Source of the DNA: an uncultured Candidatus Saccharibacteria bacterium | GTDB taxonomy: Bacteria; Patescibacteriota; Saccharimonadia; Saccharimonadales; UBA10212 | Assembly (NCBI GenBank): GCA_964460855.1 | Contig: CAYWQH010000001.1 | Location: 59,868-123,867 of the forward strand | Length of the DNA stretch: 64,000 bases | Direction: 5' to 3' | In this document: one piece after another, positions 6,736 to 58,709 of the stretch | Position numbering within the stretch: the first letter of the stretch is position 1 | Layout of the letters: each line of letters begins with the position of its first letter | Position numbers and translations under genes: made by a program | The notes under the pieces: generated by a model | What the model was told of the DNA's origin: nothing | The model's input: only the letters and a program-made list of their open reading frames with translations | Databases searched by the model: none

Positions 6736-7927
6736 AACACGCATATAGTACGATTGCCGCCCCCAGCCCGGCAAGCACAAACGGGTTTAGTTTATTGGCG
6801 GAGTTGGCGGCTGCCAGCTTTTCGCCTACGCTATTTCCGGTATTGGCACCAGAAACTTTTTTGTTTTTAGTGGTTGCTGGTTTTGTTTTAGCGCTGTGCA
6901 GCGCGGCGGGTTTTGATGCTTTAGTTTTGCCAGCCGTATTTGCGGCGGCTGATAATGTAATAATATTTGCCGCGCCGGGAGTTGGCTGGTTAGTCCACTG
7001 CCACTTGCCGTCTTTAAGCGCCCAAGCCTGGCCGCTTTGGGCGGCAGAGTAGGGGCCGGATTGGTCCACAATATTCCCCGCTGGGTCATAAAGTTTTACC
7101 TGGCCGCTGGTATTGCTGAGCGTGAGGTGGCTTTGTTTGCTGTAAATTACCGCGTAATTCCGGGGCTTAAGCGTAACGCCGGAAATTATATACTTATAAC
7201 TTTCTTTAGTGCCGCTGGTTAATTTATAGCCGGTCAAGTCTACAGTGGCAGAAGTTGGGTTATATAACTCCACGAATTCATCGTTGGCGTCGGTTTGCGG
7301 CGCCGCCGGGTTGGGCATTAACTCAGTTATTTTTATTACGGCCGGTTGGGCAGCAGCCGAAGTTGCGCTTAACGCTTGCGGCGGTAGCTGAAATATATTG
7401 GCGGCTTTTGGCGTTGGGCTGGCAGTAATTGCAAAGCCGGCGCCGCCCAGCGCAATCGAACTGCCGGGCGGGGGCGCGGCGCTAATAGCCCCGGCCGCGG
7501 TACCCCAGGCGATTTGGTCCTGCACTTGGCCGGCCGGGTCAACCAACCTCAGTTGGCCGCCTTCCTGGGCTAGCGTACTATTAAAGCTGCTATCGGCCTG
7601 GCCGGTTAAATAACCGCTGCTAGCAAGCAAGTAGTAACCGCCTGCCCCAACCGAACCATTTACACCAAGGCTGCGGGTAGGGCTTGTCCAATCAGTTGAA
7701 TTGGCGCTTAAATAAAATATTTTCCAGCCGCTTACATTAATTGCCACCGGGCTATTGTTATAAAGTTCGATAAATTCCTGCCCGGCGCTGTCCGTAGAGC
7801 CGGTTTGTACTTCAGAAAATCGCACGCCTGCCTGTTGCGCCGCAACGCTGCCGCCTCCCGGCGAACTAAACCCCAGTATTGTAAGCGTAAGTAATATAGC
7901 TATACAATATATCTTCACTAACCGCAA
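6650..7927 (-). CDS. Secreted, C-terminally membrane-anchored protein with two lamin-tail-domain (LTD) repeats
   Basis: Signal peptide, then two LTD signatures (QEFIELYNNS..VSGWKI and DEFVELYNPT..LTGYKL), a Lys/Ala-rich linker and a C-terminal TM helix. Start codon uncertain (TTG at 7927 or GTG at 7918). Confidence 0.7.
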   Translation of the reverse strand: MRLVKIYCIAILLTLTILGFSSPGGGSVAAQQAGVRFSEVQTGSTDSAGQEFIELYNNSPVAINVSGWKIFYLSANSTDWTSPTRSLGVNGSVGAGGYYLLASSGYLTGQADSSFNSTLAQEGGQLRLVDPAGQVQDQIAWGTAAGAISAAPPPGSSIALGGAGFAITASPTPKAANIFQLPPQALSATSAAAQPAVIKITELMPNPAAPQTDANDEFVELYNPTSATVDLTGYKLTSGTKESYKYIISGVTLKPRNYAVIYSKQSHLTLSNTSGQVKLYDPAGNIVDQSGPYSAAQSGQAWALKDGKWQWTNQPTPGAANIITLSAAANTAGKTKASKPAALHSAKTKPATTKNKKVSGANTGNSVGEKLAAANSANKLNPFVLAGLGAAIVLYACYEYRHDLANRLHQFRANRAARRAAGGSA

Positions 7928-10699: not shown

Positions 10700-10729
10700 A
10701 TTATACAAAATCTAGCAGTCTTGGGTCAA
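10700..10729 (-). promoter_or_regulatory. Sigma70-type promoter for recA
   Basis: On the minus strand: TTGACC (10729-10724), 18-nt spacer, TATAAT (10705-10700), about 55 nt upstream of the recA ATG. Confidence 0.55.
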
Positions 10730-10945
10730 GAGTGCTAACGCTTATTCAGGGCTTTCGCACCACGCCGGCTCGTACACTGGCAAAGCCAGTGAATCGCCGG
10801 CGTTTTTGGCGCATTACGTTGTCAAAGCCTCCGCTACTCCTTCACCGTACATTCCCGTACGGCTCAGTCCGTTACTCGACTTTTCCTAGTACTGCGCTCA
10901 AATGCAAAACCCCTGCAGCTATAAAATACGGCTATAATATTTATT

Positions 10946-11137
10946 GTGAATCCGGGGGATATTTCTAAAGCGATTATCAGCGCCTTGCCGCTGCTTGCGC
11001 TTTGCGTTAACTTGCTGTTCGTGGCCGATATTTACCTGCACGCCGAACACCGGCGGGCTTTATGGATAATTTTAACCATAATTACCGGCATTTTGGGCTA
11101 TATATTTTTTTGGTTTTCCGGCGACCGCCAAAAATAA
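10946..11137 (+). CDS. Small membrane protein, PLD-nuclease N-terminal (PLDc_N)-like
   Basis: 63-aa ORF with a GTG start and two TM helices. The ..ADIYLHAEHRRALWIILTIITGILGYIFFWFSGDR pattern is typical of PLDc_N. Confidence 0.5.
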   Translation: MNPGDISKAIISALPLLALCVNLLFVADIYLHAEHRRALWIILTIITGILGYIFFWFSGDRQK

Positions 11138-11150
11138 CTTATCAATTTAC

Positions 11151-11250
11151 AGCTTTCAACAATCAACAAGCTTTCAACTAAACAATTGTCAGCGATTTAA
11201 TGAAATTTGAAAGCTGACGCGTTGCTACTTTGTTGTTAATTGAAAGCTGA
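11151..11250. repeat. Four copies of a 9-11-nt motif (2 direct AGCTTTCAAC, 2 inverted TTGAAAGCTGA) upstream of pilB
   Basis: AGCTTTCAAC at 11151-11160 and 11169-11178. TTGAAAGCTGA at 11207-11217 and 11240-11250. Confidence 0.8.
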
Positions 11251-11315
11251 AATTTGTAAATTCTTAATTCCTAAACTTATCGTATATAATTGCTTATGAT
11301 TAACCTCGCATACCT

Positions 11316-14432: not shown

Positions 14433-14897
14433 ATGACAATTAACAGAAAAAATAACCAACGGGGTTTCACGATCGTCGAACTTCTTATCGTCATCGTCGT
14501 GATCATCATCCTGGCCGGGCTGGTATTGAACAGCTTTAAAGGCGTCCAGGAACGGGCCCGTGACACAGAACGGCGCACCGACATCAACTCGGTCGCAACC
14601 CAACTGGAAGTTTACTATAACGACAACGGCGGATACCCGGTACTAACTGGTAACCTGGACACCGACTCATGGATCACCGCTAACTTAAAGGGTGCTGACC
14701 TAAACGCGTTCCGCGCCCCTAACGCTACTGCCAACACCATGACTAACTCCGCAACTCCTGACAAGGACCACTACGGTTACACCCCGCTGCAAAGCGACGG
14801 CACTACCGCTTGTACTACTGCTCCTTGCGCCAAATTCAAACTGTACTTCTTCGAGGAAAAGACCTCAACCGTTAAGAGCAAAGACAGCCTTAACTAA
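14433..14897 (+). CDS. pilA: Type IV major pilin (prepilin with N-terminal methylation motif)
   Basis: AGGAGG lies 6 nt upstream of the ATG at 14433. Leader MTINRKNNQRG|FTIVELLIVIVVIIILAGL, a C-terminal Cys pair, and its own promoter and strong terminator. Confidence 0.9.
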   Translation: MTINRKNNQRGFTIVELLIVIVVIIILAGLVLNSFKGVQERARDTERRTDINSVATQLEVYYNDNGGYPVLTGNLDTDSWITANLKGADLNAFRAPNATANTMTNSATPDKDHYGYTPLQSDGTTACTTAPCAKFKLYFFEEKTSTVKSKDSLN

Positions 14898-27657: not shown

Positions 27658-30231
27658 TTACAACAGGCCGCACCAAAAGGTGAAGGCGCTGGCGGTACTG
27701 TTGCTGAAAAACAAGGTATTAGGCATTGTGGTTTGGCCGGCAATATTCGAAGCCCAGCGGATAACGAACTTGTCCGAGCCCATTACGCCGAGGTTGGCGC
27801 GGGCGGCCACGCTGTTGCCGCACCAGAAAACCGGCATTGTCGTACCGGTAGCCAACATAGCTACCACCATATACTGCCCCGGCGAGCCGGTGAGCTTTAC
27901 GGTTGAGGTCAAAGCCAAGCTTTGTTCCCCCGTACCGCCGAATGCGGCGGTAACATCGCCGGTCACCGCCATTTTGGTGCCGCGCATATCATAGATAGCC
28001 ATAAAGTTCCGCCCGGCCGTTAGCCCGGATCCAGCTGTTTCGATGCCGACCATAATGTTGCTGACATCCATAAAATCTTCCATCGGAACTTTAGCGATAA
28101 ATATCTGGGCACTAACCGGCGAATTGGTGGACTGGATATCATTGGGGTCAAAGCTCCACGACTTGAACTTATTCATGTTGGGGCGGACGCTGCGGCCCAA
28201 ACTCTTATTGGAAGTGGCCATGTCGTTGGTGACTTTGGGGAAAGCGGCTTGGTAGCCGGGCGTCACGTAGTTCAGGCCGGCAAAGGTGTTCGATACATAA
28301 TTGCCGGAAGGCGGCGGCCCGAGCAGCACCTGGCCGGAGATATTGGCTTTGGGCGGCCAGTAAACGCCTTTAATACTGTCGTAGTTGCCGAGTCCGTCGT
28401 CGGCGGTAGCGATGGAGCGCAATTTGACGTCCGGTTCGGCGGCGGTACCGTATGGCCGGCAAGTAGTTAGCAGCGTTTGTACCAGACCGCCCGTGGCAGT
28501 CATTTGGTAAGGAATAATATAAACGTCTTTAAGCTGCATAGGTATGTCGCGGGTGCCTTGCCAAAGCAGCTGGCGGGAACCAATGCCGGCAATCGTATCG
28601 ACGGCTGTGATGTCCATTCGTTTAGCCACTATGCCGCGGCAACGGGCGTCGACGTTGGCAACATTACTAGCGAATAATCCCTGGTAAGTAGAGTAGCCGG
28701 TCAGTTTATCTACCCGGAGTTCGCGGCAGCCGCCTTCCATTTCGATAATATCGGGGTGCTTATCGGTAAATGTCGAACTGTGGGCGACGATTGGCTGGCC
28801 GGGATCGCCTACGCGGCAGTTCTGGATCTGGACGATAGCTTCCGGGCAGTAAACCTGGAAGCCATCAGATAAGTCCACCCCATGAAGATAAAGTCCTTCG
28901 AGATGGACTACGCCGGTAGCGTTACCAATAAAAATGCCGCGGCTATAAGTATCGGAATCGTTGGGCCGCTGGTCGGGGTGGTCAATCTCACCGCCGATCC
29001 AGACAATATTGCGGCCGCCGCTTAAATAAACGGCACCCGTAGATAGGGTCGAACTAATCGTATTAGGGCAATAAATAACGTAATCTTGGTTGGGAAGTAA
29101 ATTGGGGTAATAGTTGCCGCCGGCTACCAATGTGATTTCTATCGGGTTATCCAGCTCGGGCGGCGCCCAGGTCAGGCGCTGGTCATCTACGGCCGACAGG
29201 CGCGGGTCGGTGGTATCCACGACAGCATTGCCATTGTGCTGCAAGGCGCCGGTAAAATCCTTATCGCCAGTTACCGTTTCGGTACCGGCTAAATGAACAA
29301 CGGACGTATCAGCGGCTTTAGCCGCCAAGCCTGGTACTGTCGGCGAGGCTGCCGTGCCGGCCAAGTCGCCGGCAAGCTGTACGATACCTTTGCTTAAAGT
29401 GGTAGCATCGGCCGCGCCGGAAGGCGTTACCCAGGTCTGGTCACCGCGTAAGAATTTTGTGTTATCAGCCCCTGCTCCACCTAATTGGGCGGTTGGAACT
29501 TTGGAGCCGCTATCGAGCGACGCGTAACCCGAAGCAGCCCCTTTATTGGCGGTACTTTCTTTAGAAGCTAAACCAGGGACTGTAGGCGAAGCAGCCGTAC
29601 CGCCCAAGTCGCCGGCAAGCTGGACGATACCCTTGCTGAGAGTGGTGGCGTCGGGCGCGCCGGCAGGCGCAACCCAGGTTTGGTCGCCGCGCAAGAATTT
29701 AGTGTTATCAGCCCCGGCACCGCCCAATTGGGTTGTAGGTACTTTGGTGCCGCTGTCGAGTGAAGCGTAGCCCGAAGCCGCGCCTTTATTCGCCGTATTT
29801 TCTTTGGCAGACAATCCCGGAACCGTAGGGGACGCGGCGGTACCGCCCAAGTCGCCAGCTAGCTGGACAATGCCCTTGCTTAGAGTAGTAGCATCCGGCG
29901 CCCCGGCTGATGTAGTACTGTCTACATACGCTTTAGTGGCGGCATCCTGCGGATTGGAAGGGTCGGCAACGTTAATAGCCTTCTTACTATTAAATGATAC
30001 GTCGGCGCTGGGCGAAGCCATCGGGCGGGCATCGCTTAACCGCGAATCGGATGTCGAGATAGTACCTAAATTCGAACGGGCAGTAGCGGCATCGGTCGCG
30101 CCGGTGCCGCCTTTAGTTACACCTAAGGTTTTCTGCGAACCGTCGGCGTTATGCTCCTGCGATAAAAAATCATTTAAGATGTCCCCCCAGGTGCCGTCAT
30201 CTGATCCCGGTATGGGCAGGCGATGAGCCAT
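27658..30231 (-). CDS. Phage-tail-fibre-like repeat protein with probable beta-helix core (857 aa)
   Basis: N-terminal GGTGATDAATARSNLG and DAATKAYVD motifs, three 81-aa repeats containing KGIVQLA and FLRGDQTW, then a beta-helix-like region. No signal peptide. Confidence 0.7.
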   Translation of the reverse strand: MAHRLPIPGSDDGTWGDILNDFLSQEHNADGSQKTLGVTKGGTGATDAATARSNLGTISTSDSRLSDARPMASPSADVSFNSKKAINVADPSNPQDAATKAYVDSTTSAGAPDATTLSKGIVQLAGDLGGTAASPTVPGLSAKENTANKGAASGYASLDSGTKVPTTQLGGAGADNTKFLRGDQTWVAPAGAPDATTLSKGIVQLAGDLGGTAASPTVPGLASKESTANKGAASGYASLDSGSKVPTAQLGGAGADNTKFLRGDQTWVTPSGAADATTLSKGIVQLAGDLAGTAASPTVPGLAAKAADTSVVHLAGTETVTGDKDFTGALQHNGNAVVDTTDPRLSAVDDQRLTWAPPELDNPIEITLVAGGNYYPNLLPNQDYVIYCPNTISSTLSTGAVYLSGGRNIVWIGGEIDHPDQRPNDSDTYSRGIFIGNATGVVHLEGLYLHGVDLSDGFQVYCPEAIVQIQNCRVGDPGQPIVAHSSTFTDKHPDIIEMEGGCRELRVDKLTGYSTYQGLFASNVANVDARCRGIVAKRMDITAVDTIAGIGSRQLLWQGTRDIPMQLKDVYIIPYQMTATGGLVQTLLTTCRPYGTAAEPDVKLRSIATADDGLGNYDSIKGVYWPPKANISGQVLLGPPPSGNYVSNTFAGLNYVTPGYQAAFPKVTNDMATSNKSLGRSVRPNMNKFKSWSFDPNDIQSTNSPVSAQIFIAKVPMEDFMDVSNIMVGIETAGSGLTAGRNFMAIYDMRGTKMAVTGDVTAAFGGTGEQSLALTSTVKLTGSPGQYMVVAMLATGTTMPVFWCGNSVAARANLGVMGSDKFVIRWASNIAGQTTMPNTLFFSNSTASAFTFWCGLL
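29317..29904 (-). repeat. Tandem in-frame coding repeats, period 243 nt (2 full copies plus 1 partial)
   Basis: CCAAGTCGCCGGCAAGCTG.ACGATACC.TTGCT recurs at about 29361, 29604 and (diverged) 29847. At protein level APDATTLSKGIVQLAGDLGGTAASPTVPGL occurs three times. Confidence 0.9.
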
Positions 30232-31125: not shown

Positions 31126-31202
31126 GGCAGGGTAGCTCAGTTGGTTAGAGCACAGGACTCATAAGCCTGGGGTCGCGAGTTCAAATCTCGCCCCTGCTAC
31201 CA
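31126..31202 (+). tRNA. tRNA-Met (anticodon CAU), elongator type, CCA encoded
   Basis: GGCAGGG/TA/GCTC-AGTTGGTTA-GAGC/A/CAGGA-CTCATAA-GCCTG/GGGTC/GCGAG-TTCAAAT-CTCGC/CCCTGCT/A/CCA. The D and anticodon region closely resemble E. coli elongator tRNA-Met. Confidence 0.85.
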
Positions 31203-31214
31203 GAGCGCACGAAC

Positions 31215-31260
31215 GACAAGCTTTTACGAGAAGCAAAGCTCCTCGCCAAGCTTGTCTTTT
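31215..31260 (+). terminator. Hairpin plus T-run 3' of tRNA-Met (first part of the conserved module)
   Basis: GACAAGCTT...AAGCTTGTC 9-bp outer stem, loop core GAAGCAAAGCTCC, then TTTT. Confidence 0.7.
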
Positions 31261-31266
31261 CATTTG

Positions 31267-31354
31267 TGGCGGTGTCAAAACTTCCGGTGCTCGCAGCAGT
31301 ACTATTTGTACAGCTGCTTCCGCTCCTCAGTTTTTCCTACCCACAAATGAAATC
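31267..31354 (+). repeat. Conserved non-coding block A, copy 1 (partner at 58298-58385 on the minus strand)
   Basis: Hand alignment with the reverse complement of 58298-58385 gives about 70 of ~89 positions identical (TGGCGGTGTCA..TCCGGTGCTC..GCAGTACT..TGTACAGCT.CTTCCGCTCCTC..TTCCTACCCA..GAAATC). Confidence 0.8.
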
Positions 31355-31496
31355 GAGCGCTCTGGTTATGCCCGCAATTGATGTGGAGCGAAAACTCTCG
31401 CAGAAGCTTGCTTCGAGAAAGTTTGAGCGGAAGAGGACGAAGTCCGCTAATCTCGCTTTGGGCTTATACTGTGAATTGCTGGTAAACTTTAGCTGT

Positions 31497-32198
31497 ATGG
31501 CAAATACATCATGGCTCAATAAAGACGCTTCGCCATTAATGGGCAGAGTGCTCGATTACATATTCCCGAACTTTACCGAACTGCATTATTTTATATTGAT
31601 TTTTGTGATTGGCGCCGGCATGGTTTTTTACCAACCATCGGAACTGGCTGTATATGCCGGTAATTTCCCGTTATATGGCTTAATTATTGCTGCGGCAGTG
31701 CTGGCCAGCTTGTATATTCTGCTTAAAAATAAAGTTTACGGAAAAAGAGTTAAATCTGTCATCGCGGCTTTTTATTTTTTAATTTTCGCCATATTAGCTT
31801 ATAACGCAATAAGCGAGGCTGCTATACCCAAAGACGGCACACTTTTCGATATGATAAATTTCTGGCTAGTAAGGTTATCGTTATTGCTGGCAGTAATTAG
31901 GGGAGCCATAGTTTATCTATTTGGCCGGGTATCTTTAGAATCCGATGATTACTGGTTCTTTGATGTGTTTGACCGCAACTTTGATGATACGCAATTTAAA
32001 ATCCAAGGTTTTTTGCTGGCCACGCTAACAGCCTGCAGCATATTTTTAATTTTAAGCCGCCACTACCCTGGCCCGGCTACCGTGGTGCTGCTCGCGTACT
32101 CATATACAAATTTATTGCTGGCTTGTACCCGGCCGTTAATCGGAAAATACATTGCTTATCCTTTAAATAGCGATGCAACGGGTATGGTAGAAAACTAA
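31497..32198 (+). CDS. Hypothetical polytopic membrane protein
   Basis: Start moved to the ATG at 31497 (MANTSWLNKD..) because the longer ORF from 31266 runs through the conserved non-coding module. 6-7 TM helices. Confidence 0.5.
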   Translation: MANTSWLNKDASPLMGRVLDYIFPNFTELHYFILIFVIGAGMVFYQPSELAVYAGNFPLYGLIIAAAVLASLYILLKNKVYGKRVKSVIAAFYFLIFAILAYNAISEAAIPKDGTLFDMINFWLVRLSLLLAVIRGAIVYLFGRVSLESDDYWFFDVFDRNFDDTQFKIQGFLLATLTACSIFLILSRHYPGPATVVLLAYSYTNLLLACTRPLIGKYIAYPLNSDATGMVEN

Positions 32199-33395: not shown

Positions 33396-33806
33396 ATGAG
33401 AGGACCGATCGACTACATCATCGTGGGCTTCGAAGGCAATAAATTTGACGGCAGCATCATGAAAGCCCTTGGCGATGCGGTTGATAAAGGGATTATTGAT
33501 ATTGTCGCCTTATCCATGATTACCAAAGACAAAGACGGCAATGTGTCTGCCCTGGACGCCACAAACCTGGGCGATAGCTACGCCGTAGAAATCGCCACCA
33601 AATATAAGGACGCTTCCAGCAAGCAAGTCACCCAGGACGATTTAGACGAAGTTTCAGAACTTCTAGAAAATAATACGTCGGCCGGACTGCTGGTAATAGA
33701 ACAGTTATGGGCCATCCCGTTAAAGCAAGCATTAATAGACGCTAACGGCGTATTAGTCGCCGAAGGCCGCATCCACCCGGACGCCGCCGCCGAATTAGAT
33801 AAATAA
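33396..33806 (+). CDS. Conserved small protein (family I recall as DUF6325-like; name uncertain), paralogue of 43138-43566
   Basis: MRGPIDYIIVGFEGNKFDGS.. and ..TSAGLLVIEQLWA..EGRIHP. GGAGGTGAT lies upstream of the ATG. Clear alignment with the 43138-43566 product. Confidence 0.6.
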   Translation: MRGPIDYIIVGFEGNKFDGSIMKALGDAVDKGIIDIVALSMITKDKDGNVSALDATNLGDSYAVEIATKYKDASSKQVTQDDLDEVSELLENNTSAGLLVIEQLWAIPLKQALIDANGVLVAEGRIHPDAAAELDK

Positions 33807-43137: not shown

Positions 43138-43566
43138 TTACTTTATTTGCGCGATGTCTTCAACTGCAGCTGCTGCTTTTTCAGGATGTATACGGCCCTC
43201 GTCCAATAAAACCGCGTCTTTATCCAATAACGCCTTTTTCAGGCCTTTAGCCCAAAGCTGTTCAATTACTAAGACTCCGGCGGAAGTGTCGTTCTCCATT
43301 TTACTGCCAAGTTTTTCGATATCAGATTCAGTCATAAGTGGCATATCATCTTCATGCCCTAATATCTTCGCGACTTCTTTTAAATCTTCGTCCTGGTCTT
43401 GAACTTCGGCCATTGCTATGGTGCCGTCTTTATCTTTTATAACAAATACTAAATCCACGATTCTTATAACGCCGCTCTCAACGGCCTTGGCTAATTCTTT
43501 TAAAACGCTGCCGTCAAAGTTGTTACCCTTGAATCCCACAACTATATAATCTATCGGTCCTAACAT
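43138..43566 (-). CDS. DUF6325-like small protein, paralogue of 33396-33806
   Basis: MLGPIDYIVVGFKGNNFDGS..TSAGVLVIEQLWA..EGRIHP aligns along its full length with 33396-33806. Confidence 0.6.
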   Translation of the reverse strand: MLGPIDYIVVGFKGNNFDGSVLKELAKAVESGVIRIVDLVFVIKDKDGTIAMAEVQDQDEDLKEVAKILGHEDDMPLMTESDIEKLGSKMENDTSAGVLVIEQLWAKGLKKALLDKDAVLLDEGRIHPEKAAAAVEDIAQIK

Positions 43567-45440: not shown

Positions 45441-45585
45441 AATTCATCATCGTTAACAGATAAGTTCGTTTGCAGCTCATAGCAATAGGGAAAAAGAGCA
45501 GCGAGCTTGGTCCCGAAGTTTACGAGGGACTCAGCTTTGCTGACGAGCGATGAGAAAAAACCGTCAGGTTTTGTCTCATTATTAC

Positions 45586-49590: not shown

Positions 49591-50316
49591 CTATACTGCT
49601 ATGTTGTCGGCGATGTCGAAGTTGGTATAAGTATTTGTAACGTCATCTAAATCATCGAGCCGCTCCATGAGGTTCATAATTTTGCGGGCCGTGTTATCGT
49701 CGGAAATTTCGATTGTATTGTTAGGCTCGAACGTTAATTCGGCTTCGATAATTTCTACGCCCTGCTCGGCTAAAGCTTTGCGGACTTTGGCCAGGTCGGT
49801 CGGTGCTGTATAAACAATGATCTCCCCGTCTGACTCAATCGCGTCTTCGGCGCCGGCATCTAAAATCTGCATCAGCAGATCCTCGCCGCTGCCCTTAACC
49901 CTAATCATGCCTTTGCGGCTAAATTGGAATGCCACGCTGCCGGTTTCGGCAATGCTACCGCCGCTTTTACTAAATGCCGTACGGACATCCGGGTAAGTAC
50001 GGTTTTTATTGTCGGTAGCGCACTCCACTAATACGGCTACGCCGCCAGGTCCGTAACCTTCGTACACAATTTCTTCCAGCTGGGCTGCCGACTTATCGGC
50101 GACGCGCTGAATCGCCCTATCAATATTGCTGGTGGGCATATTGGCAGCTTTGGCTTTTTCGATGGCCATGGCCAATGACGAATTAGTAGCCGGGTCGGTG
50201 CCGCTGCGGGCGGCAATCGCCAATTGGTTGCCTAATTTGGTGAACAAGGCGCCGCGTTTAGCATCATTTACGCCTTTTTGGCGTTTGATTGTCGCCCATT
50301 TACTATGTCCTGACAT
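49591..50316 (-). CDS. yebC: YebC/PmpR family DNA-binding transcriptional regulator
   Basis: MSGHSKWATIKRQKGVNDAKRG N-terminus. 241 aa, full length. Confidence 0.95.
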   Translation of the reverse strand: MSGHSKWATIKRQKGVNDAKRGALFTKLGNQLAIAARSGTDPATNSSLAMAIEKAKAANMPTSNIDRAIQRVADKSAAQLEEIVYEGYGPGGVAVLVECATDNKNRTYPDVRTAFSKSGGSIAETGSVAFQFSRKGMIRVKGSGEDLLMQILDAGAEDAIESDGEIIVYTAPTDLAKVRKALAEQGVEIIEAELTFEPNNTIEISDDNTARKIMNLMERLDDLDDVTNTYTNFDIADNIAV

Positions 50317-52989: not shown

Positions 52990-55230
52990 TTAGTTAAGGC
53001 TGTCTTTGGCGGTTACGGAATTTGAAACTTCAGAAAACCAATATAGGCGGTATTTAGCGCAAGGCTCATTTTTGCAAATTGTAGTACCGTCGGCTTGTAG
53101 CGGGATATAGCCAAAATGATTTTTATCAGGTTTTGCAGATTGGACCATGGAGTTGGCAGTTTGCCCCGGAGCCCGGAATTGTTGCGGCTCGGCGCCGTTC
53201 ATATTCGCGGAGATCCAGCTATCGGTATTAACCTGGCTTGACAACAAAGGGTAGCCGCCATTGTCGTTATAGTAGACTTCTAGCTGCACGGCGATTGAAT
53301 TAATGTCAAACTTGCGCTCAGCGTCACGGTTTTGCGGCGTTGGCCCAACACTACTGCTATCATTGCCGCCAGTACCGCTACTGCCGCCCAGCCCCAGCTC
53401 GGACGGGTCTAAGCCAATTTGTTTTAGCACTGTTTGGATGGGCACGGAGTCTTTGGGCTTGTTGGTATCAATTACGCCGCTATATGGCTTGGCTTCGAGA
53501 GTAACATTTACTTTGTCTTTGGTATCGCTGTTGGTATAGCTGATACTGCCGGTAGTTGTGGCCGATTTCGTATCACTAACCAATTTAACGTTGGTATCAG
53601 TTTTACTTTGGCCGTTATGGTTGTTGGCGAACAGGGTGAATGTATCCCCGCCTTTATATATTTGGCCGACGTCGGTATACGAAGAATTATCAATGTCGTC
53701 AGGAATCCGGAATTTATAAATAAGCTTATACTTGGCATCGATCCACATGTCGTATACTTTTTCTTTTCCGTTTGGTACGTCTCCCGATGGCAGATGCTTA
53801 TAACTATCGCAATCTTTTTGGGCCTGGGCTTTATCCTGGCTGATATTTTTTTCATCAACCCACGGCAGTTTTTTATAAGCGTTTGTAGAATAAACCTTGT
53901 CTACGGCGTCCTTGCAATAGGCCACGGCGTGGTCCTGGTTGATGGTGACTTTATAGTGGTAAACATTAAGGCCGTCTGACGTTTCTTTGCCTTCGTAACT
54001 CTTTTGGACGAACACGGCTTTGGACTGGTCGTTGGTAAACACATAGCTATTGGTTGACGTGGTAAAGGCATGGGCCAGTTCGGTATAATCGCCGGCCGTC
54101 AGCGTTTTGCTATTAGTTTTGCTGGCCGACGGGAAATCGCCCAGCGACTTTAAATAGCTGGCCGAAACTTCGATCCATTTACCGTCGTAAGCCAGCAGCT
54201 GCGGATAAAATTCCTCGACACCTAAAGATTTAAGGCCGTTTAGCTGGAAATATATATTGGGAAAATCGCTGTCTGCCGGAATTTCGCTAATGGCTTTGGC
54301 GTTGAATTTTATGTCGTTGCCGCCGGTACCCGCAGAAGTTACATTTATGCCGGCATTGGTTTTGGAGGCGTCGAATTTGGCGTCGAAAGCGGCATTGTAT
54401 TTAGCCCCGCCATAGTTGGCATCGACCTTTAAAGTCAGCTGGGTTTTTTTATAAGAGTCGATTGCCGTTTGGTTAGTCGATTTATCTACCACGATCGACA
54501 AAGCTTTGCCGGTGCGGCTGAAGCCGGTTTTATAAACATTTTGCGGCTGGTTGGGTAGGAATATTCCAAAAACATAACCGCCGCCAACTAACAATATAGA
54601 AACAGCGGCGATAGCCGGCAGCAGCCAGCGTTTTTTACCTGTTTTTGTAGGCTTGGCGGAATTAAAAGATTGGAAAACCTGGCCGGCCGGTTGCGTCGCA
54701 GGTTGCAGCGGATCTGCGGACGATGGCTGCTCCGGGCCGGGCAGCACCATTCCGTTAAACGGCTGGGGTCCGGGCGAAGGCTCGGCTATTGGATCGGCTG
54801 GTGTAACGACCGCGGCGGTAGCCAGGTTGCTCAGGCTGCCGGGCATTTCGGGCTGGCTGACTTTAAAAGCCGGGGCTACTTCGGGTTGGCTTACACTTGA
54901 CGGTTCGGCTTGAGGTTCTATGGTGTGCACGACTTGCGGCGTATCCACTAAGTTTTGGGCGGCCGGCACGGCCCTGGCAAACAAATCGGTGGGCGGTAAG
55001 TTAAGCGAACTGTGCTCTGGCGGATCCATTGGCTGTTCGGCGACCGCTGCCGGAGCAATGAAACTATTATTATCAATATCATTAAGAGATGATGATGTTC
55101 CGGTTTCAGAAAATGGCGCCTGGAAACCGGCGCTGGGTTCTATAACCAATGCCTTATGCGACAGCGGCTGGCCGGTTTGGTATAAATCGCCTGAATTGTC
55201 AGGATCCGGTGTTACGAGCGAATGATCCAT
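52990..55230 (-). CDS. Single-pass membrane protein with C-terminal pilin-head domain (PilA paralogue lacking the prepilin leader)
   Basis: About 200 aa of Pro/Ser/Gln-rich N-terminus, one TM helix, about 400 aa outside the membrane, a G/S linker, then 112 aa that are 70/112 identical (hand count, gapless) to PilA residues after alpha1-N. Confidence 0.65.
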   Translation of the reverse strand: MDHSLVTPDPDNSGDLYQTGQPLSHKALVIEPSAGFQAPFSETGTSSSLNDIDNNSFIAPAAVAEQPMDPPEHSSLNLPPTDLFARAVPAAQNLVDTPQVVHTIEPQAEPSSVSQPEVAPAFKVSQPEMPGSLSNLATAAVVTPADPIAEPSPGPQPFNGMVLPGPEQPSSADPLQPATQPAGQVFQSFNSAKPTKTGKKRWLLPAIAAVSILLVGGGYVFGIFLPNQPQNVYKTGFSRTGKALSIVVDKSTNQTAIDSYKKTQLTLKVDANYGGAKYNAAFDAKFDASKTNAGINVTSAGTGGNDIKFNAKAISEIPADSDFPNIYFQLNGLKSLGVEEFYPQLLAYDGKWIEVSASYLKSLGDFPSASKTNSKTLTAGDYTELAHAFTTSTNSYVFTNDQSKAVFVQKSYEGKETSDGLNVYHYKVTINQDHAVAYCKDAVDKVYSTNAYKKLPWVDEKNISQDKAQAQKDCDSYKHLPSGDVPNGKEKVYDMWIDAKYKLIYKFRIPDDIDNSSYTDVGQIYKGGDTFTLFANNHNGQSKTDTNVKLVSDTKSATTTGSISYTNSDTKDKVNVTLEAKPYSGVIDTNKPKDSVPIQTVLKQIGLDPSELGLGGSSGTGGNDSSSVGPTPQNRDAERKFDINSIAVQLEVYYNDNGGYPLLSSQVNTDSWISANMNGAEPQQFRAPGQTANSMVQSAKPDKNHFGYIPLQADGTTICKNEPCAKYRLYWFSEVSNSVTAKDSLN

Positions 55231-56802: not shown

Positions 56803-57795
56803 TTATGCGATTCTTGGCAGGTCTTTTTGATGTACCTGATAGCGTAGTGGCTGGCCGCTTACATATCTAATTATTTCTTCGACTGCTAACGTGCCCATTA
56901 ATTGCTGTTCGTTACCCCTTGAACCGGCAATATGCGGTGTAACAAAAATGTTAGAGAGTTTTCTGAGTTGATGATCTGCCGGTAACGGCTCATTCGGATC
57001 GGTTACATCTAAAACAACCTCAATATTCTTTTGCGGGGTTAGGTCTACTAGGGCTTCGTAATCAACGATTGTGCCCCGGGCGGTATTTATAAAAAAGCTT
57101 CCGTCTTTCATGAGTTGTAGTTGCTGGCGGCCAATTAAGTTTTGGGTTTCCGGTAGTTTAGGCGCGTGAATACTAACCACGTCGGCCCAGGCCATTAACT
57201 CATTTAGTTCCATTTTTTGGACGCCAAGATTTTGGGCATCGTCCGGCGTTAAGTAAGGGTCATAAACCGCAATCTTGACGTTATAAGATTTTAATAACCT
57301 AATTACTTCCCGCCCGACAAACGAGGCGCCAACCAAACCAACATTTAGCCCGTTAAATCCTACCAGTGTATCGCGGAGTTTTAAGTAATTATCTTTGTCG
57401 TCGTTAACGTAATTTTCAGCGGCATGCCGGACGTTTTTTGCTAAAAATACCATTGCGGCCACGGTATACTCGGCAACCGCAATGGCATTTGCCGCGGCAG
57501 CTGAAGTTATTTTTATATCCCGTTACCAAAAGTCATCGGTTACGATTTTTTTAATTGTACCGGCGGCATAAGCGACCATTTTTAGATTCGGCAGCGCGTC
57601 CAAAAATTCCTTGTCCAGATTTGGTCCGCCCCAACTAGCCAGCAATATTTCAGTATCATTTTTTGGCGCGCCTTGCACAGGCTCCCAACTTAACACTTCG
57701 CACACGTCATTTAAGTCGCTCTTGGCTTGCTGGTTAAAAAGCGTACCAGCCAGGTTGGGTGCCATCATCACGCTAACTTTTGGTCTTGGCTGCAT
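56803..57795 (-). pseudogene. D-isomer-specific 2-hydroxyacid dehydrogenase interrupted by one in-frame TAA
   Basis: ORFs 57523-57849 and 56803-57462 are in the same frame. A single TAA at 57525-57523 (..DDFW*RDIKITSAAAANAIAVAEYT..) splits an otherwise colinear enzyme (GLVGASFVGREV NAD motif, TPHIAGS). Confidence 0.75.
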
Positions 57796-57889
57796 TAGCT
57801 GATAGTAACAGAAAATGCCAGCAAAACTCCAAGGCCCCGCACAATTCACTGCGGGGTTTGCTACTTAAATATTCGCGCCCGGCAAAAAT

Positions 57890-58192: not shown

Positions 58193-58297
58193 AAGCAAAT
58201 AATATCAGTTCAAATATGGTTACGCTAGAGGTTACTAAAATGGTCTTGCGGGGCAGCGCACATCTGTGACTGTTCCGCAGGGCCCTCCGAGACAATT

Positions 58298-58385
58298 GAT
58301 TTCGCGACTGGGTAGGAAGAAGCGAGGAGCGGAAGAGCTGTACACGGAAGTACTGCGATGAGCACCGGAGCTTCTGACACCGCCA
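58298..58385 (-). repeat. Conserved non-coding block A, copy 2 (partner at 31267-31354)
   Basis: See the copy 1 entry. Orientation is inverted relative to copy 1. Confidence 0.8.
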
Positions 58386-58391
58386 GGCGCG

Positions 58392-58436
58392 AAAAAAGCA
58401 CCCTAGAAAGGGAGCTTTGCTTCCTTTCTAGGGTGC
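58392..58436 (-). terminator. Long hairpin plus T-run (minus strand), homologous in position and loop to 31215-31260
   Basis: GCACCCTAGAAAGG-aagcaaagct-CCCTTTCTAGGGTGC followed by TTTTTT on the minus strand. Confidence 0.7.
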
Positions 58437-58449
58437 TTGGTCAGTGTCT

Positions 58450-58466
58450 TGGAGGGCCCTGCGGGG
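58450..58466 (-). repeat. Exact 17-nt duplicate of the tRNA-Lys 3' end (att-like direct repeat)
   Basis: TGGAGGGCCCTGCGGGG at 58450-58466 equals 58634-58650. An inverted 14-nt copy CCGCAGGGCCCTCC lies at 58275-58288. Confidence 0.85.
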
Positions 58467-58633
58467 GGCGGTCGCTGCGCTCCCTATTTCCGCTCGGCTC
58501 ATGCTCGAAGTAAACTTCTGCGCGTGAACCTCGCTTCACGAACCCGCGACTTCAATCCGCTGCGCGTCTTGGTCGCGAGTTCGAGCCATAGAGCTCCACA
58601 AAAAATGCCCCACTTGATGTGAGATATTTTTTG

Positions 58634-58709
58634 TGGAGGGCCCTGCGGGGCTCGAACCCGCGACACGAGGCTTAAAAGGCCTCTGCTCTACCAACTGAGC
58701 TAAGGGCCC
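58634..58709 (-). tRNA. tRNA-Lys (anticodon UUU), CCA encoded
   Basis: Reverse complement is GGGCCCT/TA/GCTC-AGTTGGTA-GAGC/A/GAGGC-CTTTTAA-GCCTC/GTGTC/GCGGG-TTCGAGC-CCCGC/AGGGCCC/T/CCA. Confidence 0.9.

Follow-up and report, generated by a model that had tools for sequence, protein, structure and literature searches.

The question raised by this locus is why a non-coding segment that directly follows the 3′ end of tRNA-Met recurs, in inverted orientation and 27 kb away, behind tRNA-Lys. An initial annotation of the window (the whole Saccharibacteria stretch that was analysed, 64 000 nt in length) had divided the segment into a hairpin, a block A and a block B, and had offered three readings: conserved arms of tRNA-targeting integrative elements, a shared leader or non-coding RNA, and inverted repeats able to flip the DNA between them. 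The analysis below describes the segment as a non-coding module of ∼170–195 nt and as a candidate new structured non-coding element, which other Saccharibacteria genomes carry as well.

Three copies of the module in the window

A sensitive blastn search with 31203–31500 against the whole window gave a single non-self match, 31230–31343(+) with 58423–58309(−) (116 nt, 76% identity, E = 1.4 × 10−15). This is above chance and bears out the inverted pair behind tRNA-Met and tRNA-Lys, which was also recovered by a repeat search of the window. The loop sequence said to be common to the two hairpins is likewise real: the 13 nt apex GAAGCAAAGCTCC occurs exactly twice in the window, in the H1 hairpins of copies 1 and 2. 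Three copies (n = 3) were found in the 64 kb by covariance model R1, with matches at 31271–31340(−) for copy 1 (50.7 bits, E = 1.6 × 10−14), 58312–58381(+) for copy 2 (59.2 bits, E = 2 × 10−17) and 10818–10889(−) for copy 3 (33.9 bits, E = 7 × 10−9, filters off). A further R1 match at 49840–49896 (13.7 bits) lies within coding sequence and was rejected as chance. Each copy consists of a closing stem enclosing two hairpins, H1 and H2. The third copy, the enclosing inverted repeat and the identity of block A as a long hairpin (H2) go beyond the initial annotation. The strand given for copy 1 is that on which the core motif reads GAGGAGCGGAAG...GAGCACCGGA. The features are as follows.

10747–10915, minus strand: copy 3 module, not in the initial annotation, no adjoining tRNA
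10903–10915 with 10747–10760, closing stem of copy 3; 10805–10902, H2 of copy 3; 10763–10802, H1 of copy 3, apex GGCTTTGCC
31126–31202, plus strand: tRNA-Met (CAT), found by ARAGORN and Rfam, contributing its 3′ end to the copy 1 closing stem
31199–31366, minus strand: copy 1, three-way junction module directly 3′ of tRNA-Met
31199–31208: copy 1 closing stem, left arm ACCAGAGCGC, including the last 4 nt of tRNA-Met
31215–31260, plus strand: copy 1 H1 and T-run, terminator-like for tRNA-Met
31258–31352, minus strand: copy 1 H2 (block A), long imperfect hairpin, conserved core 31283–31328
58273–58466, plus strand: copy 2 module, joined to a 17 nt duplicate of the tRNA-Lys 3′ end and not to the tRNA-Lys gene
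58273–58294: copy 2 closing stem, far arm TTCCGCAGGGCCCTCCGAGACA, pairing with 58445–58466 (TGTCTTGGAGGGCCCTGCGGGG)
58300–58394, plus strand: copy 2 H2 (block A), core 58324–58369
58392–58436, minus strand: copy 2 H1 and T-run, 18 bp hairpin 58398–58436, same apex as copy 1
58450–58550, minus strand: pseudo tRNA-Lys 3′ half, read by comparison with the tRNA-Lys sequence
58634–58709, minus strand: tRNA-Lys (TTT), with its own terminator hairpin at ∼58590–58631

In copy 1 the H1 hairpin GACAAGCTT...AAGCTTGTC occupies 31215–31256, carries the conserved apex and is followed by TTTT (31257–31260); the left arm of the closing stem pairs with 31357–31366 (GCGCTCTGGT) in the minimum-energy and centroid structures of both strands. 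On the minus strand the H1 hairpin of copy 2 is followed by TTTTTT (58397–58392). In copy 2 the far arm of the closing stem repeats, in inverted form, the tRNA-Lys 3′ end plus AGACA, and blastn aligned 58275–58294 with 58445–58464 over 20 nt at 95% identity. Between tRNA-Lys and copy 2 lies a 167 nt patchwork of tRNA fragments. The 17 nt duplication of the tRNA-Lys 3′ end was found as annotated (58466–58450 versus 58650–58634, 100%); the pseudo-tRNA consists of GTCGCGGGTTCG (58550–58539), a 72 nt insert that includes block B, and CCCCGCAGGGCCCTCCA (58466–58450), which in copy 2 forms the near arm of the closing stem. Block B itself does not hold up as a shared part, its 19 nt match (89%, E of about 0.2–0.3) being at chance level. 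The same applies to the similar hairpin proposed upstream of tRNA-fMet at 45510–45545: it has four mismatches to the apex pattern, and matches with two or fewer mismatches are already no commoner than in shuffled sequence (12 observed, 15.6 expected).

The core of copy 3 (10830–10877) is the variant GAGTAACGGA...GAGTAGCGGA. This copy is located upstream of recA, between the recA promoter and a 63-residue membrane ORF; the syntenic pilB–recA spacer of two relatives (L113 and L115; 148–151 nt) contains neither copy 3 nor the small ORF. Over H2, copy 2 is 79% identical to a module in another genome (L073) and 74% identical to copy 1. Because copy 2 is closer to L073 than to its neighbour in the window, there is no homogenization of the window copies within the genome, and the Saccharibacteria copies are old paralogues, not a homogeneous population.

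Fold and architecture

All five Saccharibacteria-type copies gave the same three-way junction on folding, with z scores from −6.8 to −11.7. For copy 1 (31196–31375) the values were −90.8 kcal mol−1 and z = −9.5 on the minus strand and −78.2 kcal mol−1 and z = −9.9 on the plus strand; for copy 2 (58270–58470) they were −124.2 kcal mol−1 and z = −11.4 (plus) and −106.3 kcal mol−1 and z = −11.7 (minus), and copy 3 adopted the same three-way fold at −85.6 kcal mol−1 (z = −6.8). The three helices of copies 1 and 2 differ in sequence and pair in both, the apex and the internal loops being conserved. The closing stem is an inverted repeat; where the module lies beside a tRNA, one arm is the tRNA 3′ end and the other its inverted copy.

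H1 is a GC-rich hairpin with the apex GCTTTGC/GCAAAGC and with a U-run next to it on the tRNA-sense strand. Its stems, read by eye, are 9–18 bp long and are followed by TTTT, TTTTTT and TTTTT in copies 1, 2 and 3, respectively; the H1 hairpins of L073 and L105 have U-runs likewise. With this U-run H1 should act as an intrinsic terminator of the upstream tRNA or gene. It is absent from the calls of a consensus terminator scan because its loops and internal loops exceed the limits of the scan rules.

H2 is an imperfect hairpin of ∼95 nt with a nearly twofold symmetric core, in which both strands have the sequence GA-GNANC-GGA. Pairing between the GNANC segments gives a five-position helix with a central A·A, and the GA and GGA segments are opposed as purine-rich internal loops. 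A second conserved loop has the sequence CAAGG/GAC. The conserved core segments are direct repeats (GAGNANCGGA on both arms), not inverted ones.

A small peptide read through block A was considered and rejected: 17 of 29 amino acids are identical (59%), compared with 76–80% identity at the nucleotide level. In relatives the length of the central hairpin ranges from 15 to 37 nt with differences that are not multiples of three, and the module is therefore non-coding. The initial annotation had reached this view from compensating 1 nt indels in block A; these depend on the alignment chosen, an ungapped alignment keeping the frame, and it is the variation in hairpin length that sustains the conclusion.

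Distribution and covariation of the H2 core

A 69-position covariance model and a 22 nt search pattern describe the family. Searches for the core retrieved about 60 distinct elements from Saccharibacteria, Burkholderiales, Dormibacterota, Kofleriaceae (Myxococcota) and a cultured Brevibacillus; with the core pattern, 64 metagenome loci yielded ∼42 structured elements and 44 genome loci yielded 30. Nearly every example is from an uncultured genome, a possible reason for the family having been overlooked. Many members are single hairpins without the other parts of the module. Copies with the exact core reach four in one draft genome assembly, and decayed and tandem copies are present. Four copies in the Burkholderiales assembly RBC005 (L074, L079, L086 and L108) are very alike, and the Burkholderiales subfamily carries GTAG on both arms in direct orientation, a head that the window copies do not have.

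In the alignment of 61 distinct rows to the covariance model, 85.7% of the model pairs were formed, compared with 25–46% when the 3′ partner was slid by 1–3 columns. Changes on both sides of a pair were counted in 201 alignment cells (a cell being a given sequence at a given pair), compared with 67 ± 6.5 in shuffles, and none of the 500 shuffles reached 201. Covariation of the stems is strong. Pairing of the core helix is kept in the variants GGAGC/GCACC, GUAAC/GUAGC (copy 3) and GGAAC/GUACC (L099), and the outer stems are locus-specific yet complementary in each copy. The strand carrying the core motif folds better in 25 of 28 elements, and in the apical helix this strand has G·U pairs in 25 cases versus five; the basal helix is without strand bias (20 G·U versus 33 A·C).

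H2 belongs to a widespread family that is absent from Rfam 15. At the gathering threshold its 4227 covariance models, among them those for T-box, 6S, SRP and tmRNA and for known ribozymes and riboswitches, detected only six tRNAs in the whole window, scans of both module regions at E ≤ 10 returned only noise (miRNA-type matches far below threshold), and a scan of 16 related loci at E ≤ 1 placed nothing on the motif. The core pattern had two chance matches in viral contigs, both in GC-rich coding DNA, and no match to the module came from 50 697 phage records searched with blastn. In full-text literature the core and subfamily sequence strings matched only unrelated primers and genes, and keyword searches turned up no account of an element of this kind in Saccharibacteria or Patescibacteria.

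A sporadic, multi-copy, intergenic and orientation-independent distribution across phyla, with an invariant core and covarying stems, is also what small ribozymes display, and the lack of a match to any known class would suit an RNA of a new kind, be it a self-cleaving ribozyme, another catalytic RNA or a ligand-binding RNA, whose active core would consist of the symmetric internal loops and CAAGG/GAC. The core is however very small and has no similarity to known ribozyme cores, and the elements do not take the consistent 5′-UTR position that a riboswitch would have; this explanation is considered highly improbable.

Genomic context and likeness to known systems

Family elements are intergenic, often between convergent genes, and they occupy boundaries of transcripts, namely the 3′ ends of genes, the spacers between cistrons and the 5′ or 3′ ends of tRNA genes. 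The Brevibacillus copy, for example, lies within an ABC transporter operon, in the spacer that separates the substrate-binding-protein gene from the permease gene. About one in eight family loci abuts a tRNA end, which is far above chance, so that the emphasis placed on tRNA 3′ ends in the initial annotation is justified as an enrichment and not as a rule, since most members are not at tRNAs; neither copy 3 nor L105 has a tRNA nearby. In L073 the same module sequence follows tRNA-Asp with the junction CCA followed directly by AGACACTGAYCAAGCACCC, as in copy 2 (Lys), and in both cases the far arm complements the locus's own tRNA. Two Logan contigs (<2 kb) break at tRNA-Met beside the module. 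The orientation of the elements relative to neighbouring genes is inconsistent, and the GC skew of the window showed no switch to which copy orientation and replication direction could be tied. When the ORFs lying up to 4 kb from 44 elements were clustered all against all, no conserved neighbour protein emerged beyond redundant loci.

Remnant attachment arms of tRNA-targeting integrative elements, or inverted repeats flipping the intervening 27 kb, would account for two of the three copies abutting tRNA 3′-end sequence, and the direct 17 nt tRNA-Lys duplicate and the patchwork of tRNA fragments are signs of past rearrangement at tRNA-Lys. Pfam scans of ∼70 ORFs of the 64 kb window, however, detected no integrase, transposase or reverse transcriptase, and the DNA between copies 1 and 2 is of housekeeping character (ruvA, ruvC, yebC, dus, divIC, comEC and two tRNA-Met genes). 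The module is bounded by inverted instead of direct repeats, the structure is kept while the sequence is not, which attachment arms do not require, and a nearby tRNA is lacking for copy 3, L105 and the majority of the family. As regards the flip, copies 1 and 2 align over 116 nt at 76% identity and share no exact stretch longer than 13 nt. Both proposals, which date from the initial annotation, are judged very unlikely.

The leader proposal survives in part. A conserved, structured non-coding element is what the data indicate, but the membrane proteins encoded downstream of the three modules and of L073 have no mutual homology, and the ideas of a leader of a gene family and of a gene cassette were dropped for this reason. 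On the strand of the putative leader the module contains a terminator-like hairpin with a U-run.

Some arrangements bear on transcription of the element. At L087 a promoter-like TTGACT-16-TAGAAT precedes the hairpin, which is followed by tRNA-Leu with no gap, and at L020/L095 the hairpin lies in the spacer from tRNA-Val to tRNA-Asp; these arrangements suggest transcription in some contexts. A promoter-like TTCACA-16-TATTTT is directed into copy 3 on the core-motif strand. A stand-alone structured or tRNA-linked small RNA, read from the core-motif strand and freed by RNase P or other processing, might bind or titrate a conserved dimeric protein, its 3′ part in Saccharibacteria being antisense to the tRNA 3′ end. 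RNA genes typically combine a conserved apical core with covarying stems, as seen here, and the better folding and additional apical G·U pairs of the core-motif strand, the two promoter-like sites and the retention of old paralogues across genomes argue in the same direction. On the other hand, a sigma-70-like promoter lies upstream on the motif strand in only two of 51 elements, so that an own promoter is not a general feature, and the window copies have no terminator after the module on that strand. A transcript of copies 1 and 2 would run antisense into the tRNA gene, the neighbouring transcripts of the Brevibacillus and Saccharibacteria modules are on the strand opposite to the core motif (in Brevibacillus that of the operon), and decayed copies exist. 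Such a small RNA is regarded as rather unlikely.

Slightly less doubtful, though still improbable, is a mobile single-stranded-DNA hairpin element of REPIN or PATE type, in which the core would be the recognition site of an HUH/Y1 or other hairpin-binding transposase or recombinase encoded once elsewhere in each genome, insertion would occur into hairpin loops and tRNA gene ends, and any effect at the RNA level would be incidental. The absence of copy 3 from the syntenic site of relatives points this way, as do the decayed and tandem copies, the very similar RBC005 copies, outer stems that are locus-specific yet complementary, the same module sequence placed exactly after CCA on different tRNAs, and an orientation independent of neighbouring genes. 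Against it, neither the window nor the surroundings of the ∼60 elements contain a transposase, RAYT, integrase or reverse transcriptase; more specifically, no Y1_Tnp, RAYT or other HUH-type gene was found among ∼70 ORFs of the window, 64 kb from a contig of at least 193 kb, and no Y1_Tnp or transposase domain among the neighbours of paired copies. Known hairpin transposons conserve their ends or base, whereas here the conserved part is central; the copy number is low, the Saccharibacteria copies are old paralogues, and viral contigs and phage records hold no match.

A 22 nt core that is identical across phyla is more in keeping with a functional RNA than with a selfish repeat. With some reserve, the H2 core and the CAAGG/GAC loop may be the hallmark of a new class of functional RNA that would be made from boundary regions of tRNAs and mRNAs; this is considered possible but not probable. 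The hairpin at L087 would then be the 5′ leader of a tRNA-Leu precursor, released by RNase P cleavage, a conserved dimeric protein would read the RNA or the RNA would itself be catalytic, and the three-way junction modules of the window would be genes for an RNA and not repeats.

The reading preferred here, with a probability of roughly 0.45, is that the module is a REP-like structured repeat built on a deeply conserved core that would be recognized in folded form. As a multi-copy extragenic hairpin it would function as a folded single strand in the manner of REP/BIME sequences; a dimeric protein probably reads the symmetric core, and the flanking stems would need only to pair. New copies would come from duplication or insertion events at the boundaries of hairpins and tRNAs; template-switch (snap-back) copying of the adjoining flank may then lengthen the outer stems, which would account for the inverted copy of the tRNA 3′ end. 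The element may also affect how RNA is stabilized or processed.

Structured non-coding motifs common to bacteria of the candidate phyla radiation, Proteobacteria and Firmicutes are rare, and those described so far belong to essential RNAs, riboswitches or ribozymes. The H2 core is unusually small and nearly twofold symmetric, with strong covariation in about 60 independent sequences and nothing corresponding in Rfam 15. If the functional-RNA view is true, such an RNA would be conserved from Saccharibacteria to Proteobacteria, Dormibacterota, Myxococcota and Firmicutes. The covariance model, the search pattern and the cultured host Brevibacillus sp. SIMBA_040 are experimental handles that could reveal the binding partner and whether the element marks, stabilizes or processes transcript ends beside tRNAs. 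The proposed copying would moreover be a general route by which inverted tRNA 3′-end copies can form beside hairpin elements with no need of an integrase.

Among known systems, T-box leaders share a long hairpin with purine-rich internal loops, a terminator hairpin and a complement of the tRNA 3′ end; the module differs in that the order of parts is wrong, a specifier loop and T-box sequence are lacking, no aminoacyl-tRNA synthetase or amino-acid gene lies downstream and the Rfam T-box model gave no match. The att sites of tRNA-targeting elements also adjoin partial tRNA 3′-end copies with a junction exactly after CCA, but here the copies are inverted, integrase and cargo are missing and the majority of members lie away from tRNAs; a single direct repeat, of 17 nt, is present, and the 167 nt that it encloses contain no gene. 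Integron attC sites and other recombination sites read as folded single strands, such as the CTX phage attP, resemble the module in keeping structure while sequence varies, in near twofold geometry and in unpaired bases within a paired hairpin as likely recognition features. Unlike attC, the module has no R or L boxes (RYYYAAC/GTTRRRY), its closing stems are tRNA-derived or locus-specific, its conserved part is not at the base, and it is accompanied by neither an integron integrase nor a cassette array.

Retron msr/msd regions likewise have a variable inverted-repeat closing stem around a short and a long hairpin, as in the five Saccharibacteria-type copies. The window however has no reverse transcriptase, the downstream genes encode unrelated membrane proteins or recA, the long hairpin of the module has a core conserved across phyla and many members are single hairpins. 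The archaeal bulge–helix–bulge motif has a short central helix with unpaired nucleotides on both strands, is nearly twofold symmetric and is read by a dimeric enzyme. H2 looks similar in its near twofold central helix flanked by unpaired nucleotides, but has 2 × 3 internal loops (GA opposite GGA) instead of 3 nt bulges and a central helix of five positions with A·A. Bacteria are not known to possess the bulge–helix–bulge splicing endonuclease. SRP RNA domain IV, the sarcin–ricin loop, k-turns, C/D boxes and CsrA GGA sites were compared by eye and set aside, the conserved positions not fitting, and the Rfam models that exist for these motifs gave no match.

The closest likeness is to REP, BIME and REPIN sequences. 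The module differs from them in a core identical across phyla, REPs being normally lineage-specific and much more abundant, and in a conserved part that is central and asymmetric, with GAGNANCGGA as direct repeats on the two arms; compared with REPIN–RAYT systems the window copies have no GTAG head, the copy number is low and the window has no RAYT. Shared with them are tandem or decayed copies, presence or absence between relatives, and positions downstream of genes, in the gap between convergent genes and in spacers between cistrons; the classic REPs of hisJ–hisQ and malE–malF occupy the same kind of spacer as the Brevibacillus copy. Both are multi-copy extragenic imperfect palindromes that act, or in the case of the module would act, as a folded single strand.

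The module and its copies

In a sensitive blastn search of the window, the sole non-self match of 31203-31500 was 31230-31343 (+) against 58423-58309 (-) (116 nt, 76% identity, E = 1.4e-15), and the same pair was recovered by a repeat search as I5/I6. The initial annotation, which had placed a repeated module 3' of tRNA-Met and tRNA-Lys, is borne out here, as is its observation of one hairpin apex in both copies: the 13-nt apex GAAGCAAAGCTCC of hairpin H1 is present at two places only in the 64 kb, the hairpins of copies 1 and 2. Beside copy 2 stands an exact 17-nt duplicate of the 3' end of tRNA-Lys. A shorter block B, described as a further shared part, was reduced to a 19-nt match (E about 0.2-0.3), and the resemblance of a hairpin at 45.5 kb to the apex motif is at chance level (12 matches with up to two mismatches versus 15.6 expected).

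31126-31202 (+), tRNA-Met (ARAGORN, Rfam)
31199-31366 (-), module copy 1; closing stem 31199-31208 paired with 31357-31366 (fold)
58634-58709 (-), tRNA-Lys (ARAGORN, Rfam)
58273-58466 (+), module copy 2; closing stem 58273-58294 paired with 58445-58466 (fold)
10747-10915 (-), module copy 3, complete; same junction by folding (z = -6.8)

Block A, the longer shared stretch, is a long imperfect hairpin (H2) rather than a linear block, and an inverted repeat encloses the whole module. RNA folding of 31196-31375 and 58270-58470 gave one three-way junction for both regions, whichever strand was folded (z = -9.5 to -11.7). Between copies 1 and 2 the stem sequences of all three helices diverge with pairing kept in both, and the H1 apex and H2 internal loops are conserved. 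H1 looks like a terminator of the upstream tRNA, because a T-run directly follows the hairpin on the tRNA-sense strand (TTTT in copy 1, TTTTTT in copy 2); a simple terminator scan made no call for H1 of either copy because of its internal loop.

Two mobile readings had been proposed for the pair, and both are regarded as highly unlikely. Inversion of the intervening 27 kb is opposed by the longest identical run between copies 1 and 2, which is 13 nt. Against arms of an integrative element, the bounding repeats are inverted, the 31-58 kb interval consists of housekeeping genes, and a search of about 70 window ORFs found no domain of an integrase, a transposase, a reverse transcriptase or a RAYT (REP-associated tyrosine transposase).

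Two Logan contigs apparently from the same organism (L116 and L117; SRR9179559/60) break about 165 nt upstream of a ferredoxin-reductase-like gene, inside tRNA-Met and beside copy 1; the module may therefore interfere with short-read assembly. Between copies 1 and 2 lie two oppositely oriented DUF6325 paralogues, some 10 kb from each other (33396-33806 (+) and 43138-43566 (-)). A D-2-hydroxyacid dehydrogenase, 56803-57849 (-), is apparently split over two ORFs (57523-57849, without a Pfam hit and possibly the N-terminal part, and 56803-57462, the NAD-binding domain); the split may reflect a frameshift, a pseudogene or a start called at the wrong place. Three 243-nt tandem repeats, 76-83% identical, occupy 29316-29906 within an 857-aa ORF (27658-30231) that has DUF5907 repeats and weakly matches the baseplate-like BppL_N. 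A 59-nt inverted repeat (78% complementary) has one arm in a gene that carries a pilin-type N-terminal methylation motif and the other in an unannotated 746-aa ORF, 52990-55230 (arms 14580-14638 and 53249-53307).

A covarying family

In the orientation antisense to both tRNAs, H2 reads GAGGAGCGGAAG, a hairpin and GAGCACCGGA. This pattern, with a variable gap, was scanned over public collections; the exact 22-nt core was demanded, so that diversity and copy numbers are underestimates. Structured elements have a short hairpin between the two core halves and complementary stems enclosing all; the remaining loci were chance matches within GC-rich genes.

Loci returned by the pattern scans
Viral contigs: 2 loci; 0 structured elements (chance hits)
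Metagenome contigs: 64 loci; about 42 structured elements
Species-representative genomes: 44 loci; 30 structured elements

By the record titles of the genome hits, the family occurs in Candidatus Saccharibacteria/Saccharimonadales (L073, L076, L078, L105 and L107, numbered as loci of the scans), in many draft assemblies of Burkholderiales and Usitatibacteraceae (up to four copies per assembly), in a draft genome labelled Moraxellaceae (three copies), in Dormibacterota (L077, L100), in Kofleriaceae (L096) and in the cultured Brevibacillus sp. SIMBA_040 (L092).

Covariation, which the initial annotation had proposed to test, is strong. Across 61 distinct sequences in the model alignment, with a cell defined as one sequence at one pair, 85.7% of cells hold standard pairs; shifting the 3' partners by 1-3 columns lowers this to 25-46%. 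Both sides are changed in 201 cells, versus 67 ± 6.5 after shuffling, and none of 500 shuffles reached the observed value. Counts from a model-fitted alignment lean towards the model; a MAFFT alignment of the 27-sequence seed gave the same result. The central helix covaries too:

GGAGC/GCACC, usual form
GUAAC/GUAGC, window copy 3
GGAAC/GUACC, locus L099

From these variants the general core is GA-[GNANC]-GGA on each strand, in which the GNANC segments pair around A.A and each GA lies opposite GGA: a near two-fold symmetric motif built from two direct repeats. Another internal loop, in which CAAGG or UAGG faces GAC, is also conserved and is found 5-7 bp below the core. That these loops belong to a new ribozyme or ligand-binding RNA is considered very improbable. 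No Rfam 15 family matched the window copies or 16 related loci, permissive thresholds included.

The length of the central hairpin ranges from 15 to 37 nt, with increments not divisible by three, and the reading frame through block A is 59% identical as protein versus 76-80% as DNA. The element is therefore judged non-coding, in line with the proposal that block A is conserved as nucleotides. The core-motif strand gave the better fold in 25 of 28 elements, and G.U pairs in the apical helix are commoner on it (25 versus 5); the basal helix has no such bias.

Five contigs of one metagenome (Ga0228698; L011, L024, L031, L037 and L060) carry a GC-rich subfamily, also with a three-way junction, whose second hairpin is CCCCCCTGCAAAGCAGGGGGG; the apex of this hairpin, GCAAAGC, equals the Saccharibacteria H1 apex, GCTTTGC, in reverse complement.

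Genomic setting and the closing stem

R1, a covariance model built on the core region of H2, was run over the window with filters off and picked up a third copy (10818-10889 (-); 33.9 bits, E = 7e-9). Its H1 has the apex GGCTTTGCC, with TTTTT after it on the opposite strand. Copy 3 has the recA promoter on one side, a 63-aa membrane ORF on the other, and no adjacent tRNA. In relatives with RecA 82-83% identical and shared pilB/recA/recX/LTD/tsaD/RNase Y synteny, the pilB-recA spacer is 148-151 nt versus 674 nt here, which indicates that copy 3 and the 63-aa ORF are lineage-specific; the covariance model found no module copy in those recA loci. On the recA strand, a promoter-like TTCACA-16-TATTTT aims into copy 3, and the interval from the module to recA holds a second such site, the near-consensus TTGACC-18-TATAAT (the two sites are 10923-10950 and 10700-10729 (-)). 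A 36-nt inverted repeat (75% complementary, 11143-11256) upstream of pilB, rich in TTGAAAGCT / AGCTTTCAA motifs, falls in the stretch missing from the relatives.

A tRNA gene lies within 300 nt of the core at about one-eighth of loci (4 distinct metagenome loci; 4/30 genome loci), far above expectation from tRNA density. In Burkholderiales the hairpin base contacts the tRNA 5' end, and at L020/L095 the hairpin occupies the spacer from tRNA-Val to tRNA-Asp. At L087 a good promoter-like site, TTGACT-16-TAGAAT, precedes the hairpin, and tRNA-Leu follows the hairpin without a gap; on this arrangement the tRNA precursor must carry the hairpin as its 5' leader. Such a promoter is present at only 2/51 elements, so an own promoter does not appear to be general. 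A stand-alone or tRNA-linked small RNA is rated rather improbable for the family.

Five Saccharibacteria-type modules (window copies 1-3, L073, L105) align across H2, an A-rich linker and H1, and all give the same junction. L073, from a different genome, sits after tRNA-Asp (junction CCA|AGACACTGATCAAGCACCC); copy 2 follows the tRNA-Lys 3'-end duplicate (CCA|AGACACTGACCAAGCACCC). In both, the far closing-stem arm is an inverted, slightly degenerate copy of the own tRNA 3' end plus AGACA; copy 1 mirrors only ACCA and the six bases after it. Copy 2 is nearer to L073 than to copy 1 (H2, 79% versus 74%; overall, 70% versus 54%), so the window copies are old paralogues, not recent duplicates.

Judging by how quasi-palindromes are known to mutate, the simplest account of an inverted copy of whichever flank is adjacent would be palindrome extension: at a hairpin already present, snap-back synthesis or a template switch would copy the constrained flank, here the tRNA, onto the opposite arm. 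It would also account for the outer stems across the family, which are specific to each locus yet complementary. Between tRNA-Lys and copy 2, 58450-58633 (-) is a patchwork of tRNA fragments, including a pseudo tRNA-Lys 3' half broken in its T-loop by a 72-nt insert, and bears the marks of past rearrangement at this tRNA. The patchwork also holds an inverted T-arm-like piece, GGCTCGAACTCGCGACC (about 58553-58590), which forms a hairpin with GTCGCGGGTTCG.

Possible function and kind of object

No neighbouring protein family was common to unrelated loci. By rough ORF maps the elements are intergenic, frequently between convergent genes or just 3' of a gene, in mixed orientation to neighbouring transcripts. 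The Brevibacillus element lies in an ABC transporter operon, between the substrate-binding-protein and permease genes; such a spacer is a classic site of repetitive extragenic palindromes (REPs). The proposal of a shared leader or ncRNA holds as to a structured non-coding element and fails as to a leader of the downstream membrane-protein genes: the proteins are mutually unrelated, and on that strand the module itself contains a terminator-like hairpin.

Some family members are decayed, tandem or paired. In L086, from a Burkholderiales draft genome, a degenerate hairpin stands in tandem with an intact one at a distance of 115 nt (1768-1945), L110 has one copy without its 3' half-core, and L023 has two inverted copies (2301-2364 and 7326-7386) on either side of tsf-pyrH-frr-uppS. 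One L023 copy has GGA changed to GCA simultaneously in both half-cores. GC skew gave no clue to replication direction. A single-stranded-DNA hairpin mobilised in trans is rated unlikely.

The reading tentatively favoured, at a probability of about 0.45, is a REP-like structured repeat. Such an extragenic hairpin family would act in folded single-stranded form at transcript boundaries, where H1 would supply termination and a dimeric factor would read the symmetric H2 core. No match to the family, its symmetric core or its cross-phylum spread was found in Rfam 15 or by literature searches; conserved hairpins in extragenic DNA and orphan structured motifs are, as a kind of object, known.
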